The notes under the pieces: generated by a model
What the model saw: only the letters and a program-made list of their open reading frames with translations
The model's database searches: none
Told to the model about the DNA's origin: nothing
Shown here: in pieces, positions 3,117-27,659 of the stretch
How positions within the stretch are numbered: position 1 is the stretch's first letter
Layout of the letters: each line of letters starts with the position of its first letter
Origin: a virus
Lineage: Duplodnaviria > Heunggongvirae > Uroviricota > Caudoviricetes
IMG/VR virus record: IMGVR_UViG_2541047802_000007
Length of the DNA stretch: 64,000 bases
Strand: one strand, 5' to 3'
Program-made: the position numbers and the translations under genes

Positions 3117-4154
3117 TTAGTCTAGGGATAGTTGATATTCTTTGAATGTAATAATATTATTTTTTAGCCATAAATTTAATTCTTCGAAACGTTTTTGCAA
3201 AGGTATTAATTCATTACGAACAAATACCCGACTTGCCTTCTCCACATCCCCAAACCCCCCAACATTATTCGGCAAAATTCCCATCATCTGAGGCGGTACG
3301 CGGTGTGCAGCCATCATGTCGTCCCGGCTCACGTTCTTGATGTTCAGAAATTCATCTTTCGCTGCGACTTCTGACAACGGGATGATCTGAAGCCCGTCCT
3401 TTTTGCCGTTAGGCGAGTACATAAACAGGTTGCGGAAGTTGCCAGGGCCTTTGGCGCTTTTCATCGCGTTGCGGAGGTTGTTCACATCTTCCTGGTTCTG
3501 CGCGGCGTCGGTCATATACATGATGAAGCCTGCATGACTGCCGTTAATGTAATACTTGCGGCGGAACAGCGTGGCAGACTCGTTGAGCAGGGCGGATGGA
3601 ATAGCAGAAAGATAACCGGGCAGGCCGTAGATCTCCTGGTTGATGTCCGGTTCCATCAGATGAAAGATGCTGCCTTTCGTGAACTGATATGGCTGCGTGG
3701 TCATACCGTATTGCACAAACCAGTAGGTATCCAGGTCTAACCCGCGTCGGGTGTATTTTGCCAAGGCAGGTTCAAGGGCGATAACTTCACCGAAGCGGTT
3801 CGTGCGTTTCTCCAGGTAGGCGTTACCAAATACCAGATAGTCCTGCACAAAACGCGAAAAAGCCTGCTGGCTGAGCAGCGGGTGAGGGATGTAGGTGCTG
3901 GTCAGAATGTTGCACTTTACTGCAATCGGGGAACTATGATGAACGGCAGCGCGGAAGGTGCGCGCCAGTCCGTCAAAGCTGACGGGCGGCTCATACCAGC
4001 GGTCCATCTGTACGCATTCCACATAATCCAGCAGTTCTCGGCGGTCCAGAACAGGAACGGGATCGCCGAAGCTGAATGCTTCGGCTGTAGTTTGACTTTT
4101 AAGCTGGATCTGTTTCGTCGCCGCAGCGCGGTTCTTCTTACTCTTTCCCATCAA
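3117..4154 (-). CDS. Q: Portal protein (P2 gpQ-like)
   Basis: 345-aa product similar to P2 Q; synteny with P. Confidence 0.85.
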   Translation of the reverse strand: MMGKSKKNRAAATKQIQLKSQTTAEAFSFGDPVPVLDRRELLDYVECVQMDRWYEPPVSFDGLARTFRAAVHHSSPIAVKCNILTSTYIPHPLLSQQAFSRFVQDYLVFGNAYLEKRTNRFGEVIALEPALAKYTRRGLDLDTYWFVQYGMTTQPYQFTKGSIFHLMEPDINQEIYGLPGYLSAIPSALLNESATLFRRKYYINGSHAGFIMYMTDAAQNQEDVNNLRNAMKSAKGPGNFRNLFMYSPNGKKDGLQIIPLSEVAAKDEFLNIKNVSRDDMMAAHRVPPQMMGILPNNVGGFGDVEKASRVFVRNELIPLQKRFEELNLWLKNNIITFKEYQLSLD

Positions 4155-5917
4155 AAAATCTCCACAATATTGCTGGTATTGGCGGATTCGCCCTGCAGCG
4201 GTTCGTTAAACAGTGCGTGCATCGTTGCCCAGGCCAGATCGGCGTGGCTGGCTTCTTCGCTGCGGCTGGCTTCATAGGTCGGGCGGTTGCCACTGGCGGT
4301 GGTGGCGCGGCGGATTGCCATAAAGGACTGCGCTATGTCGGTGTGTCCGGCGTCAAACTCCAGACGGCGGTGGCTGATAATGTCGTAGGCCTTGAGTACC
4401 AGGGCGTTTTTAACGTTGGGGTTGTAGACAAACTCCCGGACGGCAGGAAAAAACGCTTTCACGTTCTCGTAAACCCCGTGACCAACGCCGGTTGAGTCGA
4501 TACCGATATAGGTCACGTTGTACTGTTCGGTCAGTTTTTTGATGGCGTCAGCCTGGGCGCGGAAGTCCATTCCGCGCCACTGGTGACGCTCAAGAATGCG
4601 GAACTTACCGCCCGGCACGGCTGGCGGCGCCACCACCACGCATCCGGCGCTGTCGCCGTTCTGCGTACCTTTCGCCGGGTCATATCCGATCCACACTTCG
4701 CGCCAGCCAAACGGGCGCAGGGCCAGTGCATGAAAGTCGGTCCAGACTTCCCAACTGTCCACCATGCACGCCTGCAGCTCGCTGAGTGGGAACACAGACG
4801 CGAGATCGTCCACGAACTCACACATCAGCAGGTTCTGGTATTCGTCCGGGCTGTACTCCATGCGCAACTGGTCGAGGTCGAACAGGTTACAGCCGCCGCG
4901 CACCGCATCTTCCACAGTGACTATCTGGCGGTACTGCCCGTCTGCGCACAGCAGGCCGGGGGCCAGATTGCTGTGGGACAGGTCGATGTCCACCTTATCG
5001 GCTTTGTTGCGCCCTCGGTTGAACAGCGCACCGGACCAGAACGGATAAGCACTGTGTGTCAGGCTGGATGGCGTGGAAAAATAGGTTTGTCGCCATTTTT
5101 TGTGAATAGCCATACCGGAAGCCACTTTGCGCAGCTCCTGGAATTTCGGTATCCAGAAATATTCATCCAGATACAGGTTGCCGTGGTAACTCTGGGCCGT
5201 GCGGGCATTGGTGCCGAGGAAGTACAGCGTGGCCCCGTTAGGAAGCACCATCGGATCGCCTTTCAGCTCCACCTCCACTTCTTTGGCGAAGTCGATGATG
5301 TACTGCTTAAAGACGTGGGCCTGAGCCTTGCTGGCGGAAAGGAAAATCTGGTTACGCCCGGTTAGCAGGGCGTCAATCAGGGCTTCACGGGCAAAATAGA
5401 AGGTCGCGCCGATCTGGCGTGACTTCAGCAGGTTGCGGATGCGGTTGGTTTTTCCGGCTTCCCACCAGTGGCGCTGGTAGTTGAACATGGAGGAATGGAA
5501 GATTTCTTCCAGCTTCTCAATCTGTTCATCGGTGAAAACGTTCTTTTCCGGCTGACGGCGCGGGCCTTTGTTGCGGTTGGCGACGTTAGGGTTTAAGTCG
5601 GCTTCGTTGCCGCCATTGTTAAACTTGCCGATCCGCGCATGGCGCTCCGACTGGCGCGCCAGCAGGTCAATCTCTTTGAAATCTTTCCCTTCTTTGTGCT
5701 CCTTCATAATGAGCTGGCAGTAGCGTGCGGCGGTGGTGAGCTGCATCTGATCCAGCGGCCCATAGTCACCCCACTTGTCGCGTTTTTTCCAGCTGTGAAC
5801 GGTTGCAACTTTCTCGCCCAGCATTTCAGCAATGCGGGCTACGCGGTATCCCTGAAAGTACAGCAGCATGGCCTGCCGACGGGGATCGAGATCTGCGGGT
5901 GTCAGTGTGGTGTTCAT
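4151..5917 (-). CDS. P: Terminase large (ATPase) subunit (P2 gpP-like)
   Basis: 588-aa product, P2 P-like; overlaps Q start. Confidence 0.9.
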   Translation of the reverse strand: MNTTLTPADLDPRRQAMLLYFQGYRVARIAEMLGEKVATVHSWKKRDKWGDYGPLDQMQLTTAARYCQLIMKEHKEGKDFKEIDLLARQSERHARIGKFNNGGNEADLNPNVANRNKGPRRQPEKNVFTDEQIEKLEEIFHSSMFNYQRHWWEAGKTNRIRNLLKSRQIGATFYFAREALIDALLTGRNQIFLSASKAQAHVFKQYIIDFAKEVEVELKGDPMVLPNGATLYFLGTNARTAQSYHGNLYLDEYFWIPKFQELRKVASGMAIHKKWRQTYFSTPSSLTHSAYPFWSGALFNRGRNKADKVDIDLSHSNLAPGLLCADGQYRQIVTVEDAVRGGCNLFDLDQLRMEYSPDEYQNLLMCEFVDDLASVFPLSELQACMVDSWEVWTDFHALALRPFGWREVWIGYDPAKGTQNGDSAGCVVVAPPAVPGGKFRILERHQWRGMDFRAQADAIKKLTEQYNVTYIGIDSTGVGHGVYENVKAFFPAVREFVYNPNVKNALVLKAYDIISHRRLEFDAGHTDIAQSFMAIRRATTASGNRPTYEASRSEEASHADLAWATMHALFNEPLQGESANTSNIVEIF

Positions 5918-5981: not shown

Positions 5982-6059
5982 AATACCGCGCATTGTTTCA
6001 CTGCCCCCATCACCGCAACCATAAGGCTCCAGTAAGTTTTTTCTAACGGAGCACGGCTC

Positions 6060-6893
6060 ATGACAGTGAAAGCAAAGCGTTTTCGCATCGGGGTGGAAGG
6101 TGCCACCACCGACGGACGCGAAATCCAGCGTGAATGGCTGGAACAGATGGCAGCCAGCTACAACCCGGCGGTGTATACCGCGCTGATTAACCTTGAGCAC
6201 ATCAAGTCTTATCTGCCGGACAGCACCTTTAACCGCTACGGCAAGGTGACGGCGCTGTTTGCTGAAGAAATCACGGAAGGTCCGCTGGCAGGCAAGATGG
6301 CGCTGTATGCCGACGTTGAGCCAACGGAGTCCCTGGTGGAACTGGTGAAAAAAGGCCAGAAATTATTCACCTCTATGGAAGTCAGCCCGAAGTTCGCTGA
6401 TACGGGCAAAGCCTATCTGGTCGGCCTGGCTGCCACTGATGACCCTGCCAGTCTGGGTACGGAAATGCTGACATTCAGCGCCAGTGCAGCCCATAACCTG
6501 CTGGCAAACCGCAAGCAGAATCCTGCCAATCTCTTTACCGCTGCAGAGGAAACGGTGATCGAACTGGAAGAAATCCAGGACGACAAACCGTCCCTGTTTG
6601 CCCGCGTCACGGCGCTGTTTACCAAAAAAGAGCAGTCCGATGACGCCCGGTTCTCTGATGTGCATAAGGCCGTGGAGCTGGTCGCCACTGAGCAGCAGAA
6701 CCTGAGCGCACGCACCGAAAAATCCCTGTCTGAGCAGGAAGAACGCCTGTCTGAGCTGGAGACTGCCCTGCAGGCACAGCAAACCGCCTTTAACGAACTG
6801 GTGGACAAGCTGAGTCATGAAGACAGTCGCCAGGACTACCGCCAGCGTGCAACAGGCGGTAACGCCCCCGCTGACACTCTGACCAATTGCTGA
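6060..6893 (+). CDS. O: Capsid scaffolding protein (P2 gpO-like)
   Basis: 277-aa product, synteny. Confidence 0.85.
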   Translation: MTVKAKRFRIGVEGATTDGREIQREWLEQMAASYNPAVYTALINLEHIKSYLPDSTFNRYGKVTALFAEEITEGPLAGKMALYADVEPTESLVELVKKGQKLFTSMEVSPKFADTGKAYLVGLAATDDPASLGTEMLTFSASAAHNLLANRKQNPANLFTAAEETVIELEEIQDDKPSLFARVTALFTKKEQSDDARFSDVHKAVELVATEQQNLSARTEKSLSEQEERLSELETALQAQQTAFNELVDKLSHEDSRQDYRQRATGGNAPADTLTNC

Positions 6894-6909: not shown

Positions 6910-7968
6910 ATGAAGAAGAATACCCGCTTTGCTTTTAACGCTTACCTGCAGCAGCTGGCGCGTCTGAACGGTGTGGCAGTTGAAGAACTGTCCAGCAAGT
7001 TCACCGTGGAGCCGTCTGTGCAGCAGACGCTGGAAGACCAGATCCAGCAGTCCGCCGCTTTCCTGACGCTGATTAACGTCACGCCAGTGACTGAGCAGTC
7101 CGGTCAGCTGCTGGGGCTGGGAGTTGGCAGCACCATTGCCGGAACCACTGACACCACCGCGAAAGAGCGTGAACCTGTCGATCCGACGCTGATGGTCGAT
7201 GTGGAATATAAATGCGAGCAGACCAACTTTGACACGGTGCTGACCTACGCGAAGCTGGACCTGTGGGCGAAGTTTCAGGATTTCCAGGTGCGCATCCGTG
7301 ACGCCATCGTGAAACGTCAGGCTCTGGACCGCATCATGATCGGCTTTAACGGCGTGAAGCGTGCGAAAACCTCCAACCGTAGCGAAAACCCGCTGCTGCA
7401 GGATGTGAACAAAGGCTGGCTGCAGAAAATCCGTGAAGATGCACCGGATCACGTCATGGGCAGCACCACCACGGGCGGTGAAACCACACCGGGTGCGGTG
7501 AAAGTCGGGAAAGGTGGCGAATATGCCAACCTGGACGCCGTGGTGATGGATGCCGTCAATGAGCTTATCGATGTGGTCTACCAGGACGATGACGATCTGG
7601 TGGTGATTTGCGGTCGTGAACTGCTGTCTGACAAGTATTTCCCGCTGGTCAACAAAGAGCAGGAAAACAGTGAAAAACTGGCTGCTGATATGATCATCAG
7701 TCAGAAACGCATGGGTGGCCTGCAGGCCGTGCGTGCGCCGTTCTTCCCGCCGAATGCACTGCTGATCACCCGTCTGGATAACCTGTCCATCTACTGGCAG
7801 GAAGACACCCGCCGCCGCTCAGTTATCGACAACCCGAAACGTGACCGGATTGAAAACTTTGAATCCGTTAACGAAGCCTATGTGGTTGAGGACTACCGCT
7901 GCGCCGCACTGGTGGAAAACATCCAGATTGGCGACTTCAGCGCCGCAGCAGCAGAAACCGGAGCGTAA
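6910..7968 (+). CDS. N: Major capsid protein (P2 gpN-like)
   Basis: 352-aa product closely resembling P2 N. Confidence 0.9.
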   Translation: MKKNTRFAFNAYLQQLARLNGVAVEELSSKFTVEPSVQQTLEDQIQQSAAFLTLINVTPVTEQSGQLLGLGVGSTIAGTTDTTAKEREPVDPTLMVDVEYKCEQTNFDTVLTYAKLDLWAKFQDFQVRIRDAIVKRQALDRIMIGFNGVKRAKTSNRSENPLLQDVNKGWLQKIREDAPDHVMGSTTTGGETTPGAVKVGKGGEYANLDAVVMDAVNELIDVVYQDDDDLVVICGRELLSDKYFPLVNKEQENSEKLAADMIISQKRMGGLQAVRAPFFPPNALLITRLDNLSIYWQEDTRRRSVIDNPKRDRIENFESVNEAYVVEDYRCAALVENIQIGDFSAAAAETGA

Positions 7969-7971
7969 TTC

Positions 7972-8622
7972 ATGAGCCTGAGTCCCGCACGGCAGCATCG
8001 CCTGCGCGTTCAGGCTGAACAGGCCGCCCGCGAGGGCGGCAGCGTTCGCCACGCGTCGGGCTATGACCTGATGCTGCTGCAACTGGCGGAAGACCGCCGC
8101 CGTCTCAAGGGCGTTCAGTCCACGGTCAAAAAAGCGGAAATCAAGGTGGAGCTGCTGCCGAAGTACGCCGCCTGGGCGGAGGGTGTCCTGGCTGCCGGAG
8201 GCGCTCAACAGGATGACGTGCTGATGTACGTGATGCTGTGGCGCATTGATGCCGGAGATTATGCCGGGGCGCTGGAGATCGGGCGTCACGCCCTGCGTCA
8301 TGGCTGGGTGATGCCGTTAGGTAACCGCAACGTGCAGACCGTGCTGGCAGAGGAAATGGCAGATGCAGCCCAGAGCGCAATGCTTGCCGCCACCGGCTTT
8401 GATACCGATCTGTTGCTGAAGACCCTGGAGCTGACAGACGGTATGGATATGCCGGACCAGTCACGGGCGCGTCTGCATAAAGCGATTGGCGCTGTCCTGA
8501 GTGAAAGAAATCCGGCGTCTGCCCTTAATCATCTCAACCATGCGTTACAGCTCGATCCCCGCTGTGGCGTGAAAAAAGACAAACAGCAGCTAGAGCGCAG
8601 ACTGCGCAATGACAGCCGCTGA
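7972..8622 (+). CDS. M: Terminase small/endonuclease subunit (P2 gpM-like)
   Basis: 216-aa product resembling P2 M. Confidence 0.85.
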   Translation: MSLSPARQHRLRVQAEQAAREGGSVRHASGYDLMLLQLAEDRRRLKGVQSTVKKAEIKVELLPKYAAWAEGVLAAGGAQQDDVLMYVMLWRIDAGDYAGALEIGRHALRHGWVMPLGNRNVQTVLAEEMADAAQSAMLAATGFDTDLLLKTLELTDGMDMPDQSRARLHKAIGAVLSERNPASALNHLNHALQLDPRCGVKKDKQQLERRLRNDSR

Positions 8623-24300: not shown

Positions 24301-25397
24301 ATTTCAGCTCTGAACTGCTTAACAAAGGCAACAAAACTCCCGCATTCAGCATCAGTATTGAGGGCAGGGATATCACCACTGTGCTGGATAACCGCCTGAT
24401 GAGTTTGACGCTGACGGATAACCGGGGCTTTGAAGCGGACCAGCTTGATCTGGAGCTGGATGACGCTGACGGAAAAATCGTGCTGCCGCGCCGTGGTGCG
24501 GTTATTACGCTGGCGCTGGGCTGGAAGGGGCAGCCGCTTTTCCCGAAAGGGGCATTCACAGTGGACGAGATTGAACACACTGGCGCACCGGACCGCCTGA
24601 CTATCCGGGCGCGAAGTGCTGATTTTCGGGAAACGCTGAATACCCGCCGTGAAAAATCGTGGCATAAGACCACCGTCGGGGAAGTGGTGAAGGAAATAGC
24701 CGCGCGGCACAAGCTGAAGATGGCACTGGGTAAAGACCTGTCGGATAAGCCCGTGGAGCATATAGACCAGACTAATGAGAGTGACGGCAGTTTTCTGATG
24801 CGGCTGGCGCGACAGTACGGTGCCATCGCGTCGGTGAAAAATGGCAATCTGTTATTCATCCGGCAGGGGCAGGGCAAAAGCGCCACTGGTAAACCTCTGC
24901 CAGTGATCACTATCACACGCAAGGACGGCGACAGTCACCGATTTACCCTGGCAGATCGCGGAGCCTACACGGGCGTAATTGCCAGCTGGTTGCATACCCG
25001 CGAACCTGCGAAGAAAGAAAGCACCACGGTGAAGCGTAAGCGCAGAACTAAGAAGCAGAAGAAAGAGCCGGAAGCGAAGCAGGGCGATTACCTGGTGGGT
25101 ACGGATGAAAACGTGCTGGTACTTAATCGCACTTATGCCAACCGGAGCAACGCTGAACGGGCAGCGAAAATGCAGTGGGAACGCCTGCAACGCGGCGTTG
25201 CGTCATTCTCGCTACAACTGGCGGAAGGGCGGGCAGATCTTTACACGGAAATGCCAGTGAAAGTTAGTGGCTTTAAACAACCGATAGATGATGCGGAATG
25301 GACCATTACGACTCTGACTCATACCGTCAGCCCGGATAATGGTTTTACGACCAGTATTGAACTCGAAGTGAAGATTGATGATCTTGAAATGGAATAA
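24297..25397 (+). CDS. D: Tail protein D (late control D)
   Basis: 366-aa product, synteny. Confidence 0.85.
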   Translation: MNFSSELLNKGNKTPAFSISIEGRDITTVLDNRLMSLTLTDNRGFEADQLDLELDDADGKIVLPRRGAVITLALGWKGQPLFPKGAFTVDEIEHTGAPDRLTIRARSADFRETLNTRREKSWHKTTVGEVVKEIAARHKLKMALGKDLSDKPVEHIDQTNESDGSFLMRLARQYGAIASVKNGNLLFIRQGQGKSATGKPLPVITITRKDGDSHRFTLADRGAYTGVIASWLHTREPAKKESTTVKRKRRTKKQKKEPEAKQGDYLVGTDENVLVLNRTYANRSNAERAAKMQWERLQRGVASFSLQLAEGRADLYTEMPVKVSGFKQPIDDAEWTITTLTHTVSPDNGFTTSIELEVKIDDLEME

Positions 25398-25465
25398 AGT
25401 GTTCTCAATATTGATATTTTGTGTATCATTACAATGATTCTGATAGCAAAGGTAGGGATCTGGAT

Positions 25466-25552
25466 ATGATGAATTGTCCAAAGTGTGGTCATGCGGCACA
25501 CACAAGGAGCAGTTTTCAAGTAACTGAAAGCACCAAAGAGCGTTACTGCCAG
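25466..25552 (+). pseudogene. ogr: 5' fragment (29 codons) of ogr-like Cys4 zinc-finger late activator, truncated by the Mu-like insertion
   Basis: MMNCPKCGHAAHTRSSFQVTESTKERYCQ then TGA supplied by Mu end; resembles P2 Ogr N-terminus. Confidence 0.8.
25548..25552. repeat. 5-bp target-site duplication GCCAG (copy at Mu right end)
   Basis: Identical 5-mer at 62172..62176 immediately outside the other Mu end. Confidence 0.85.
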
Positions 25553-25645
25553 TGAAGCGGCGCACGAAAAGCGCGAAAGCGTTTCAAATAAAATACGAAA
25601 ACTCAAAACTTTCGCGCTTCAATTGAGACAGTTGTTTTATGTATG
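25553..25645. repeat. Mu right-end attR region (transposase binding sites)
   Basis: Terminal sequence resembles recalled Mu right end. Confidence 0.7.
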
Positions 25646-26092
25646 TCAGTTTCGTTTACATTTATATGTCTTAAAAATATTCACATCATCTCGGATATAA
25701 AGATTTTTTCCTGATTTATCAACGATAAAATACTTTATAACCGCAGGATTTCTAGTCAAAGCATAGAGATAATCAGTCCCTTTAATCTTTTCATCCTTGT
25801 CTTGTTCGTCAATTTGGCCTGTTTCTATCTGAGTGTATAGTTCACCTGTATCAAGGTCTGTCCATGACCCCATATCAACGCCCATATGCATACGAATACC
25901 GTGGCAGGTCCAAAAACCAGAGGCAGGGGCTTTATTTGCAACACTCTTATCTGGATCTATCCCGGCGGACCTTAAGACTGCATCAGCAGCCACTTCAGGA
26001 TCAAAATCTTTTTCTTGAGCGTGATTGACTGAGGAGGCGGTTAGTACGAATAGGCTGATGATGGTACTGATTAGCAATTTTGATTTTTTCAT
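25646..26092 (-). CDS. 148-aa predicted secreted/periplasmic protein (signal peptide), AT-rich; accessory gene next to Mu right end
   Basis: N-terminal MKKSKLLISTIISLFVLTASSVNHA signal-like sequence; low GC; lies between mom and attR. Confidence 0.6.
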   Translation of the reverse strand: MKKSKLLISTIISLFVLTASSVNHAQEKDFDPEVAADAVLRSAGIDPDKSVANKAPASGFWTCHGIRMHMGVDMGSWTDLDTGELYTQIETGQIDEQDKDEKIKGTDYLYALTRNPAVIKYFIVDKSGKNLYIRDDVNIFKTYKCKRN

Positions 26093-26136
26093 CTAATATG
26101 CTCCGTATGTGAGTAAATACATAAATTTATATGATA

Positions 26137-26874
26137 CTAATCAGAACTGCTTTTTGGGTATGGCTGAATCCTGAATAGTTTGGTATTTAGCCGCTTTCTT
26201 GCTCGCTTGTTCAGGAACCTGATGTAGCGATACTGATTAAATTTGTGCACCACGGCACGCTCTTTATTAGCCCGTAAATACATGCCTCGTTGTCCACCGC
26301 GCTTAATTGCGTTCATCGTTATCTCGTGATACCACTCACCATCCAGCTCGTAGAACGTGCTTTCATGGCTGCCAATAAAATCAAAATTTGACGCCTGATA
26401 CACAACGCCAGCACGTCCGCAGCGTTCGTCTGCAAAAGACTGAACCCACTCCACTGACGGATACAGTAACCTTATGGTTTTCAGTGCATAACTGATGGCC
26501 CGTGATTCAGAGTTGCGGGGCATGTCGTCGTGTAGCCACATGCGGTTCAACTCCATATAGCCCCGGTTATCCGTTTCAAGCACGACACGACGACCAGAGT
26601 TGGGGTTAAGGGCATATCCCCACTGGAGAACGCCAACCAGATCGCGTCCGCTGAATACTCCCAAGTGGAGGTAAGAGTTATTCACAAAACGGCGGGAATA
26701 GTGCTTTGTCTGAATAATTGTGCGGGCCAGCCAGCAGGATATGGTTTCAACGCGCAGCTCCTTTGAACCATAGCCAACAATCTGGCTTTCATACTCAATA
26801 ACGCACGGTTTCGTCAGAATGCGTGATTTCTTCTCTTTTCCCACAATGTTTCTCCGTGGGATGCTCGCAGGCAT
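26137..26874 (-). CDS. mom: Mom DNA-modification protein (true start probably internal to the listed ORF)
   Basis: Position directly downstream of and overlapping com; size class. Confidence 0.7.
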
Positions 26875-26983
26875 TCAGCATTATGATATGACGTTTGCAA
26901 CGCGGACACCTGATTTCAATGTGATCAAAGGAATCCGCCTTAAATAACAGTTTGTTGCAGTTTTTACAGCGAATTGATTTCAT
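26795..26983 (-). CDS. com: Com, zinc-finger translational activator of mom
   Basis: 62-aa product matching recalled Mu Com ([16 protein letters not shown]...). Confidence 0.85.
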
Positions 26984-27041
26984 CTCACCTCCTTTGCATC
27001 AATTCGCCACTATCTTAAAAAACATCGTGGGTTGAGTGTGG

Positions 27042-27659
27042 TTATTGGGGCATAATCGATCTGTATTGCCGATCGATTTGATTGATTCGATCGTCGTTTT
27101 CTATATGCGTTCGTTTCGCGGGGTGTTTTTTATACAGAGTTGACAGAGCCACATCATAGATCAATGCAACCTGCTTGCGGGGGATTCCTTGTACTAATAA
27201 ACGCCCGGCCTGCTCCCATTCCGCTTTGGTTAGTTTAGGTGGTCGCCCACCAATACGGCCTTTATTTCTGGCGGCAGCAAGTCCAGCCATCGTTCGCTCG
27301 ATGATTAGTTCTCGTTCCATTTCAGCCAGGGCACCCATAACGTGGAAGAAAAAACGCCCCATTGGAGAAGATGTGTCTATGCTGTCGGTAAGACTGCGAA
27401 AATTAATCCCTCGCTCCCGTAGTTCCCCGACGAGGGAAATCAGATGTTTCATGCTTCGCCCGAGGCGATCCAGTTTCCAGACAACCAGTGTGTCACCTTT
27501 TTGAAGGCGCTTTAACGCGCGTTTTAATCCAGGTCTGTCTGTCCTTGTTCCGCTTAATTTATCTTCAAATATTTGTTCACATCCTGCACAAACAAGAGCG
27601 TTTCGTTGCAGGTCTGTATTCTGGTCATTTGTTGATACCCTTACATAGCCAATCAGCAC
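27042..27659 (-). CDS. gin: Gin serine DNA invertase
   Basis: Product begins MLIGYVRVSTNDQ..., serine recombinase/resolvase family, adjacent to G segment. Confidence 0.9.
   Translation of the reverse strand: MLIGYVRVSTNDQNTDLQRNALVCAGCEQIFEDKLSGTRTDRPGLKRALKRLQKGDTLVVWKLDRLGRSMKHLISLVGELRERGINFRSLTDSIDTSSPMGRFFFHVMGALAEMERELIIERTMAGLAAARNKGRIGGRPPKLTKAEWEQAGRLLVQGIPRKQVALIYDVALSTLYKKHPAKRTHIENDDRINQIDRQYRSIMPQ

Follow-up and report, generated by a model that had tools for sequence, protein, structure and literature searches.

The right end of a Mu-like prophage was analysed within a window of 64,000 nucleotides (IMG/VR record IMGVR_UViG_2541047802_000007, Caudoviricetes), in which an additional gene, gene 56, lies between mom and the right end of the prophage (attR). 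We consider it likely that gene 56 of this D108-type prophage is a genuine, conserved and dispensable accessory gene (a moron), carried on an AT-rich, single-gene insertion of approximately 0.5 kb that separates mom from the innermost transposase-binding repeat (CTTTCGCGCTTCAATTGAGACAG, named R3 here), belonging to a restricted family and encoding an exported barrel protein (gp56). The open reading frame (ORF; 25646 to 26092, minus strand) codes for 148 amino acids, starts with MKKSKLLISTIISLFVLTASSVNHA and is documented by the ORF list, tblastn, PHROG, sequence alignment, AlphaFold modelling and hydropathy analysis. It is separated from mom by a spacer of 44 bp on the same strand (26093 to 26136), where direct reading of the sequence identified a GGAG ribosome-binding site 8 nt 5' of the ATG. 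The original prediction had described about 580 bp between the stop of mom (26137) and the right end (25553), holding an AT-rich ORF of 148 amino acids, and both observations were confirmed, since the interval measures 584 bp and the guanine-plus-cytosine (G+C) content is 39% in the ORF and 37% in the inserted segment as compared to 51.7% in the prophage.

Alignment with Mu and reading of the junctions placed the AT-rich segment that is absent from Mu at positions 25636 to 26155, adjacent to the Mu/D108 right end with its transposase-binding repeats (25553 to 25635, by alignment with Mu and D108). The right end of canonical Mu (AF083977) has com, mom and the terminal ~83 bp with the transposase-binding repeats in common with the D108-type prophage, and everything from the last mom codons inward is shared. 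Nonetheless, Mu has only ~40 bp at the site where the D108-type prophage has ~520 bp, and the C-terminus of Mom reads QPYP before the stop in Mu and QPYPKSSSD in the D108-type prophage. The upstream junction of the insertion is the mom stop codon and the downstream junction lies ~10 bp past the stop of gene 56, directly inboard of R3, and therefore the cassette occupies the last cargo position that does not disturb attR. The Mu-type right end (TGAAGCGGCGCACGAAAA / TGAAGCGGCGCACGAAAAGCGCGAAAGCG) begins at 25553, and a gap-tolerant alignment confirmed that its terminal ~83 bp are conserved with Mu and that the insertion leaves attR untouched. Transposase-binding sites are annotated in D108 at 11-27 and 32-48 from the end, and the inverted AAGCGCGAAAG/CTTTCGCGCTT repeat detected in the right end by the repeat search corresponds to the known motif of these sites. 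Mu is packaged by a headful mechanism, and 0.5 kb of extra DNA at the right end is tolerated because only the variable packaged host DNA is shortened. The repeat search found no convincing repeats at the ends of the gene 56 cassette. A direct repeat of 12 nt, TACATTTATATG / TAAATTTATATG, occurs near the cassette ends (25657-25668 and 26122-26133, 11/12 identical, 92%); it probably reflects chance in AT-rich DNA, and it may also be a trace of the recombination that brought in the cassette.

The AT-rich composition, which departs from that of the phage, and the lack of a known function could suggest that the prophage ends in non-coding filler in which gene 56 is a spurious ORF. We give this explanation almost no credence, since intact homologues with 43-89% identity that share invariant motifs occur across various prophages and genera, a ribosome-binding site precedes the gene, and the exact protein is present on at least 1,000 contigs of public assemblies. 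The intact homologues, the match of PHROG 15648 to the protein (E 7.6e-88, residues 1-148 of 148) and a predicted local distance difference test (pLDDT) score above 90 in the core of a confidently predicted fold argue against a chance reading frame, and the conservation data refute the spurious-ORF explanation. Two ORFs on the plus strand within gene 56 (25833-26018 and 25864-26028) were taken as antisense noise.

The gene 56 protein is 100% identical to gp56 of phage D108 (tblastn), where the ORF is annotated as gene 56, "D108-specific protein" (ACV50316), in the GenBank record GQ357916 / NC_013594. A megablast search of positions 25553-26900 against 50,697 phage records returned full-length matches in five phages, with identities over the mom-gene 56-attR region of 99.9% for Mu_3F6, 99.6% for D108, 99.4% for the Yersinia phages vB_YpM_3 and vB_YpM_23, and 97.9% for PhiR68_1. 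D108 has the same order of mom, gene 56 and attR with the same flanks, and Mu_3F6, PhiR68_1 and the two Yersinia phages carry the same gene, while the alignments of Mu, SfMu and three other Yersinia phages begin only from mom inward. According to the original prediction, mom is the last gene of Mu and ends about 100 bp from the terminus, which is borne out by the Mu record (AF083977), where 115 bp lie between the end of mom and the right end and no feature is annotated beyond the gene; thus, canonical Mu lacks the ORF and D108 has it. The extra gene is already known as a recorded difference between Mu and D108 and does not represent a novelty of this prophage. Literature searches on D108 gene 56, its accession and its PHROG retrieved no paper, and the papers on SfMu and the Yersinia Mu-like phages do not discuss the gene. 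The cluster of the exact protein (window 25649-26092) carries the source name "D108-specific protein ... RepID=GES_BPD10", a string that points to GES as the mnemonic of a UniProt entry, and no paper using the name GES for the D108 protein was found in the literature search.

Distribution of the family and its positions in Mu-like genomes

The gene 56 family is confined to Mu-like prophages of Enterobacterales. A word-indexed search yielded 16 clusters with 43-100% identity, all from Enterobacterales, including Escherichia, Salmonella, Citrobacter, Cronobacter, and Hafnia, and a profile search against 1.84 billion representative proteins returned 11 matches. Additionally, only four loci were found when 185,579 species were scanned with one genome each, belonging to Apirhabdus, an Enterobacteriaceae genome and Kluyvera (two loci). 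Among complete genomes of E. coli, gene 56 was present in 6 of 5,426 and mom in 97 of 5,426. In two prophages bearing mom (L014 and L015), this gene is immediately followed by a Mu-type right end, and a third one (L013) shows a different end sequence, with a host gene ~78 bp past mom. The occurrence of gene 56 in six E. coli genomes as compared to 97 for mom, and the existence of mom-bearing prophages without it, indicate that the gene is dispensable and rare. Where present, the gene is conserved, and the family alignment revealed invariant residues, namely W61, C63, G65, H69, M70, W77, K99, G105, Y108, D125, K129-N130-L131, D135-D136, C145, K146, and R147, and both cysteines are retained in the more distant members.

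Outside the D108-type phages, all eight loci that were inspected (L003, L005, L008, L011 and L017-L020, with the gene at ~6001-6450 or ~4001-4435) hold the homologue in a Mu-like prophage between gemA and a C-type late activator, which is followed by lys. The homologue runs in the same direction as its neighbours in at least L003, L005 and L011 and is inverted in L008, and the G+C content of these genes is 37-44% as compared to 48-53% for their loci. In Mu and D108 the interval between gemA and C is occupied by mor, gp18 and the membrane proteins gp19 and gp20, and the phages with a homologue in this interval lack the mor-gp18-gp19-gp20 block. Immediately next to the gemA-C homologues there is a conserved hairpin, AAATCCCGC...GCGGGATTTTTT. 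It lies 3' of the gene in L005 (read by eye) and L011 (called as a terminator on the strand of the gene by the scan), on both sides of the gene in L003 (read by eye, with neither copy called by the scan), and between the gene and gemA in L008, where the scan calls a terminator on the opposite strand only. Altogether, the family occupies two slots, mom-attR in D108-type phages and gemA-C elsewhere, and since the same gene is found at two operon ends of Mu-type genomes it has the behaviour and the appearance of a mobile accessory gene carried by Mu-like phages.

Transcriptional context and accessory character of gene 56

Gene 56 is located directly downstream of mom (26137 to 26874, minus strand; Pfam Mom PF25680, E 1.9e-75, and D108 annotation) and in the same direction, and com, which opens the late com-mom operon, is found at 26795 to 26983 on the minus strand (ORF list and D108 and Mu annotation). 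In the interval between mom and gene 56, the scan for promoters and terminators detected neither an intrinsic terminator nor a sigma-70 consensus promoter, and it detected no terminator after gene 56, while Rfam gave no match at E<=1 for either strand of positions 25300-27300. A late mom promoter activated by C is annotated in Mu and, because no terminator or consensus promoter separates the two genes, gene 56 of D108-type phages is probably transcribed by read-through from this promoter, in which case it would act as the third cistron of the com-mom operon.

In the original prediction the gene was regarded as a moron acquired at the extreme end of a transposable phage. This description holds with respect to the deviant G+C content and the absence from close relatives, as the gene is lacking in Mu, in SfMu and in all but 6 of the 97 complete E. 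coli genomes that carry mom. However, the scan detected neither a promoter nor a terminator belonging to gene 56, and terminator-like hairpins are seen beside the gemA-C homologues. Like the classical morons (lambda bor and lom, and the insertions of the HK97 type), gene 56 is a single AT-rich gene for an envelope protein that is absent from close relatives, and the L003 homologue likewise lies between terminator-like hairpins when these are read by eye. The D108-type gene differs from the classical morons in lacking a detected promoter and terminator of its own, and it looks like a last cistron appended to the mom operon.

Predicted export, fold and mode of action

The N-terminus of gp56 consists of MKKSK followed by a hydrophobic stretch of ~15 residues, and the hydropathy profile revealed a single hydrophobic segment at residues 3-25; past residue 25, the hydropathy peaks at only 0.72. 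Since the first cysteine is at position 63, the protein has no lipobox. By its sequence, gp56 is thus a predicted Sec substrate with a positively charged n-region, an h-region, no lipobox and no further transmembrane segments, and the homologues have signal-peptidase I sites of the A-x-A type (TAA/V, VAA/E, FAA/S, and AYA/S). The N-terminal signal peptide and the two cysteines (C63 and C145) that had been noticed originally were recovered in this analysis.

An AlphaFold2 model built with an alignment of 14 sequences divides the protein into the signal peptide (residues ~1-25), a linker of low confidence (~26-55) and an eight-stranded beta-barrel (~56-148). The mean pLDDT is 78, with low values only in the signal peptide and the linker; when averaged over blocks of ten residues it reaches at least 90 in each block from 61 to 130, and 79 for residues 131-140. 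The model contains one short helix (32-42) and eight strands, and an up-and-down, eight-stranded, calycin-like barrel is predicted with confidence. In the model, C63 is found in strand 1 and C145 just past strand 8, and since these strands are neighbours at the closure of the barrel, a C63-C145 disulfide staple is plausible. On this reading, gp56 would leave the cytoplasm through Sec and lose its signal peptide, the mature protein of ~14 kDa would fold as an eight-stranded up-and-down barrel, and a C63-C145 disulfide formed in the periplasm would staple the closure of strands 1 and 8.

The structural relatives listed for the model (scores in brackets) included the lipocalin domain of Tp0751 (7.7), the Cap15 barrel (7.4), designed barrels (~6.6), streptavidins and avidins (~6), Brucella PliC (6.1), Salmonella PliC (5.6), Staphostatin (5.6), the protease inhibitor LupI (5.2), PhiA (5.1), and MliC/YdhA (5.1). 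Foldseek comparison of the model with PDB and the viral structures of BFVD gave no match at E<=0.001. Within the calycin superfold (lipocalins, avidins, Treponema Tp0751, and Cap15) the best Foldseek E value was 0.05, which is not significant, the identity to gp56 was 5-13%, and no family signature was held in common. Likewise, neither the protein alone nor the family profile had a meaningful match in Pfam, NCBIfam, PADLOC, or the sequences of the PDB, as the sole PADLOC match (Csm2, E 0.036) and the NCBIfam matches were at chance level. A calycin-type protein that binds a small ligand in the periplasm, such as a lipid, cofactor, nucleotide, or metal, would agree with the likeness of the predicted barrel to such proteins. 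This likeness is limited to the level of the fold, no sequence match to any such family was obtained, and a barrel of ~90 residues leaves little room for a cavity, and accordingly this function appears rather unlikely.

The presence of PliC and MliC/YdhA among the structural relatives recalls the lysozyme-inhibitor function of the MliC/PliC type that had been proposed in the original prediction. As an inhibitor of this type, gp56 would be a periplasmic barrel with a loop that enters the active site of its target, either a c-type lysozyme or a phage or type VI secretion system muramidase. In MliC/PliC proteins a loop with the conserved motif SxSGAxY inserts into the active site, and the loop reads SASGARY in E. 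coli MliC. The resemblance to gp56 consists of an eight-stranded beta-barrel fold in the envelope, which is predicted in the case of gp56, and it does not extend to sequence or profile. None of the 14 members of the gp56 family matched Pfam at E<=10, hhalign of the family profile with E. coli MliC gave a probability of 2%, and the SxSGAxY loop of MliC/PliC (PF09864) has no counterpart in gp56, where the only conserved SG motif (PASGFWxC) is located at the start of strand 1. In addition, MliC is a lipoprotein while gp56 lacks a lipobox, and gp56 has an extra N-terminal helix and a linker of ~30 residues. Membership in the MliC/PliC family was therefore rejected by the profile search and by the absence of the loop motif, and the inhibitor of MliC/PliC type ranks as the least probable of the functions considered for gp56. 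That gp56 works like a periplasmic barrel inhibitor in a broader sense is possible, though not specifically supported.

Exclusion of superinfecting phages, which had also been suggested, would require gp56 to act in the periplasm against an incoming phage (for example, a heteroimmune Mu-like phage) by blocking a component of the tail or of DNA ejection. The gene is phage-restricted, dispensable, AT-rich and targeted to the envelope, which is typical of exclusion morons, and one homologue is oriented opposite to the lytic operons, which calls for a separate promoter, as in the case of genes expressed in lysogens. On the other hand, neither a PADLOC nor a functional PHROG match nor any experimental hint points to exclusion, and the D108-type gene has no detected promoter of its own and is located after the late mom operon, which is presumably silent in the lysogen. 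On balance, exclusion in this strict sense has a low probability, comparable to that of ligand binding.

A role as a periplasmic protein-binding inhibitor or immunity-like factor is the class of action that we tentatively favour over the other functions, although its probability is well below even. In such a role, gp56 would bind one-to-one to a protein that acts on the envelope, such as a protease or peptidoglycan hydrolase, or else part of an incoming phage, and block it, which would protect the infected or lysogenic cell in the manner of other small periplasmic eight-stranded barrels. A more specific proposal, which we hold with slightly greater reserve, is that gp56 may represent a new family of periplasmic beta-barrel inhibitors or exclusion factors specific to Mu-like transposable phages, moving between the gemA-C and mom-attR positions, neutralising an envelope enzyme or phage component and unrelated in sequence to MliC/PliC, Ivy, Sp/Imm, Cor, and Llp. 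Some observations weigh against the overall account of gene 56 and its product given here. The cleavage site predicted for gp56 itself, VNHA/Q, is not a textbook A-x-A site. Moreover, the expression context varies across the family: in D108 the gene comes after a late operon, in L005 and L011 it closes the early operon, in L003 it is bracketed by two hairpins that resemble terminators, and in L008 it is encoded on the other strand. This inconsistent regime makes it hard to assign the action of the protein to the lysogen or to lytic growth.

The importance of these results is limited by the fact that the gene and its absence from Mu were already contained in the D108 annotation, so that a known difference between Mu and D108 was rediscovered. 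What apparently goes beyond this annotation is the restriction of a tiny family to Mu-like prophages of Enterobacterales, the use of the gemA-C slot by all the other lineages examined, which gives two cargo sites in Mu-type genomes, and the confident prediction that the mature protein is an eight-stranded, calycin-like barrel in the periplasm. Should a function such as inhibition of an enzyme or exclusion be demonstrated, gp56 would add one more small envelope factor of phages and would explain a difference of 0.5 kb between two classic model phages, though its function would not open a long-standing question.

The surrounding prophage

The prophage extends from 25553 to 62171 (36,619 bp), with its left end, TGTATTGATTCACTTGAAGTACGAAAA, at 62171, and is of D108 type over its entire length, with 96.6-99.3% identity in the c/ner immunity region. 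Two differences from D108 were noted. Approximately 560 bp before gemA are deleted (D108 7633-8242, genes 14 to gemA), and the G-segment is divergent, with only 72-85% identity to D108 and Mu in its variable S/U parts, which suggests a different host-range cassette. The prophage is flanked by a 5-bp target duplication, GCCAG (25548-25552 and 62172-62176), and interrupts ogr, the late-activator gene of a P2-like prophage (25466-25552 / 62172-62310). The junction between the prophage and ogr was found in none of the 5,426 complete E. coli genomes, many of which contain the intact gpD-ogr segment, and removal of the prophage together with one copy of the duplication restores an intact Ogr of 72 amino acids. 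Besides, a D108-like sequence, GATTAGTATCA..., is present just beyond mom in a further Mu-like lineage, that of E. coli FDAARGOS_1059 (L013:1400-1500), which lacks gene 56 and has a different right end, and the 3' flank of mom in D108 may itself be mosaic.
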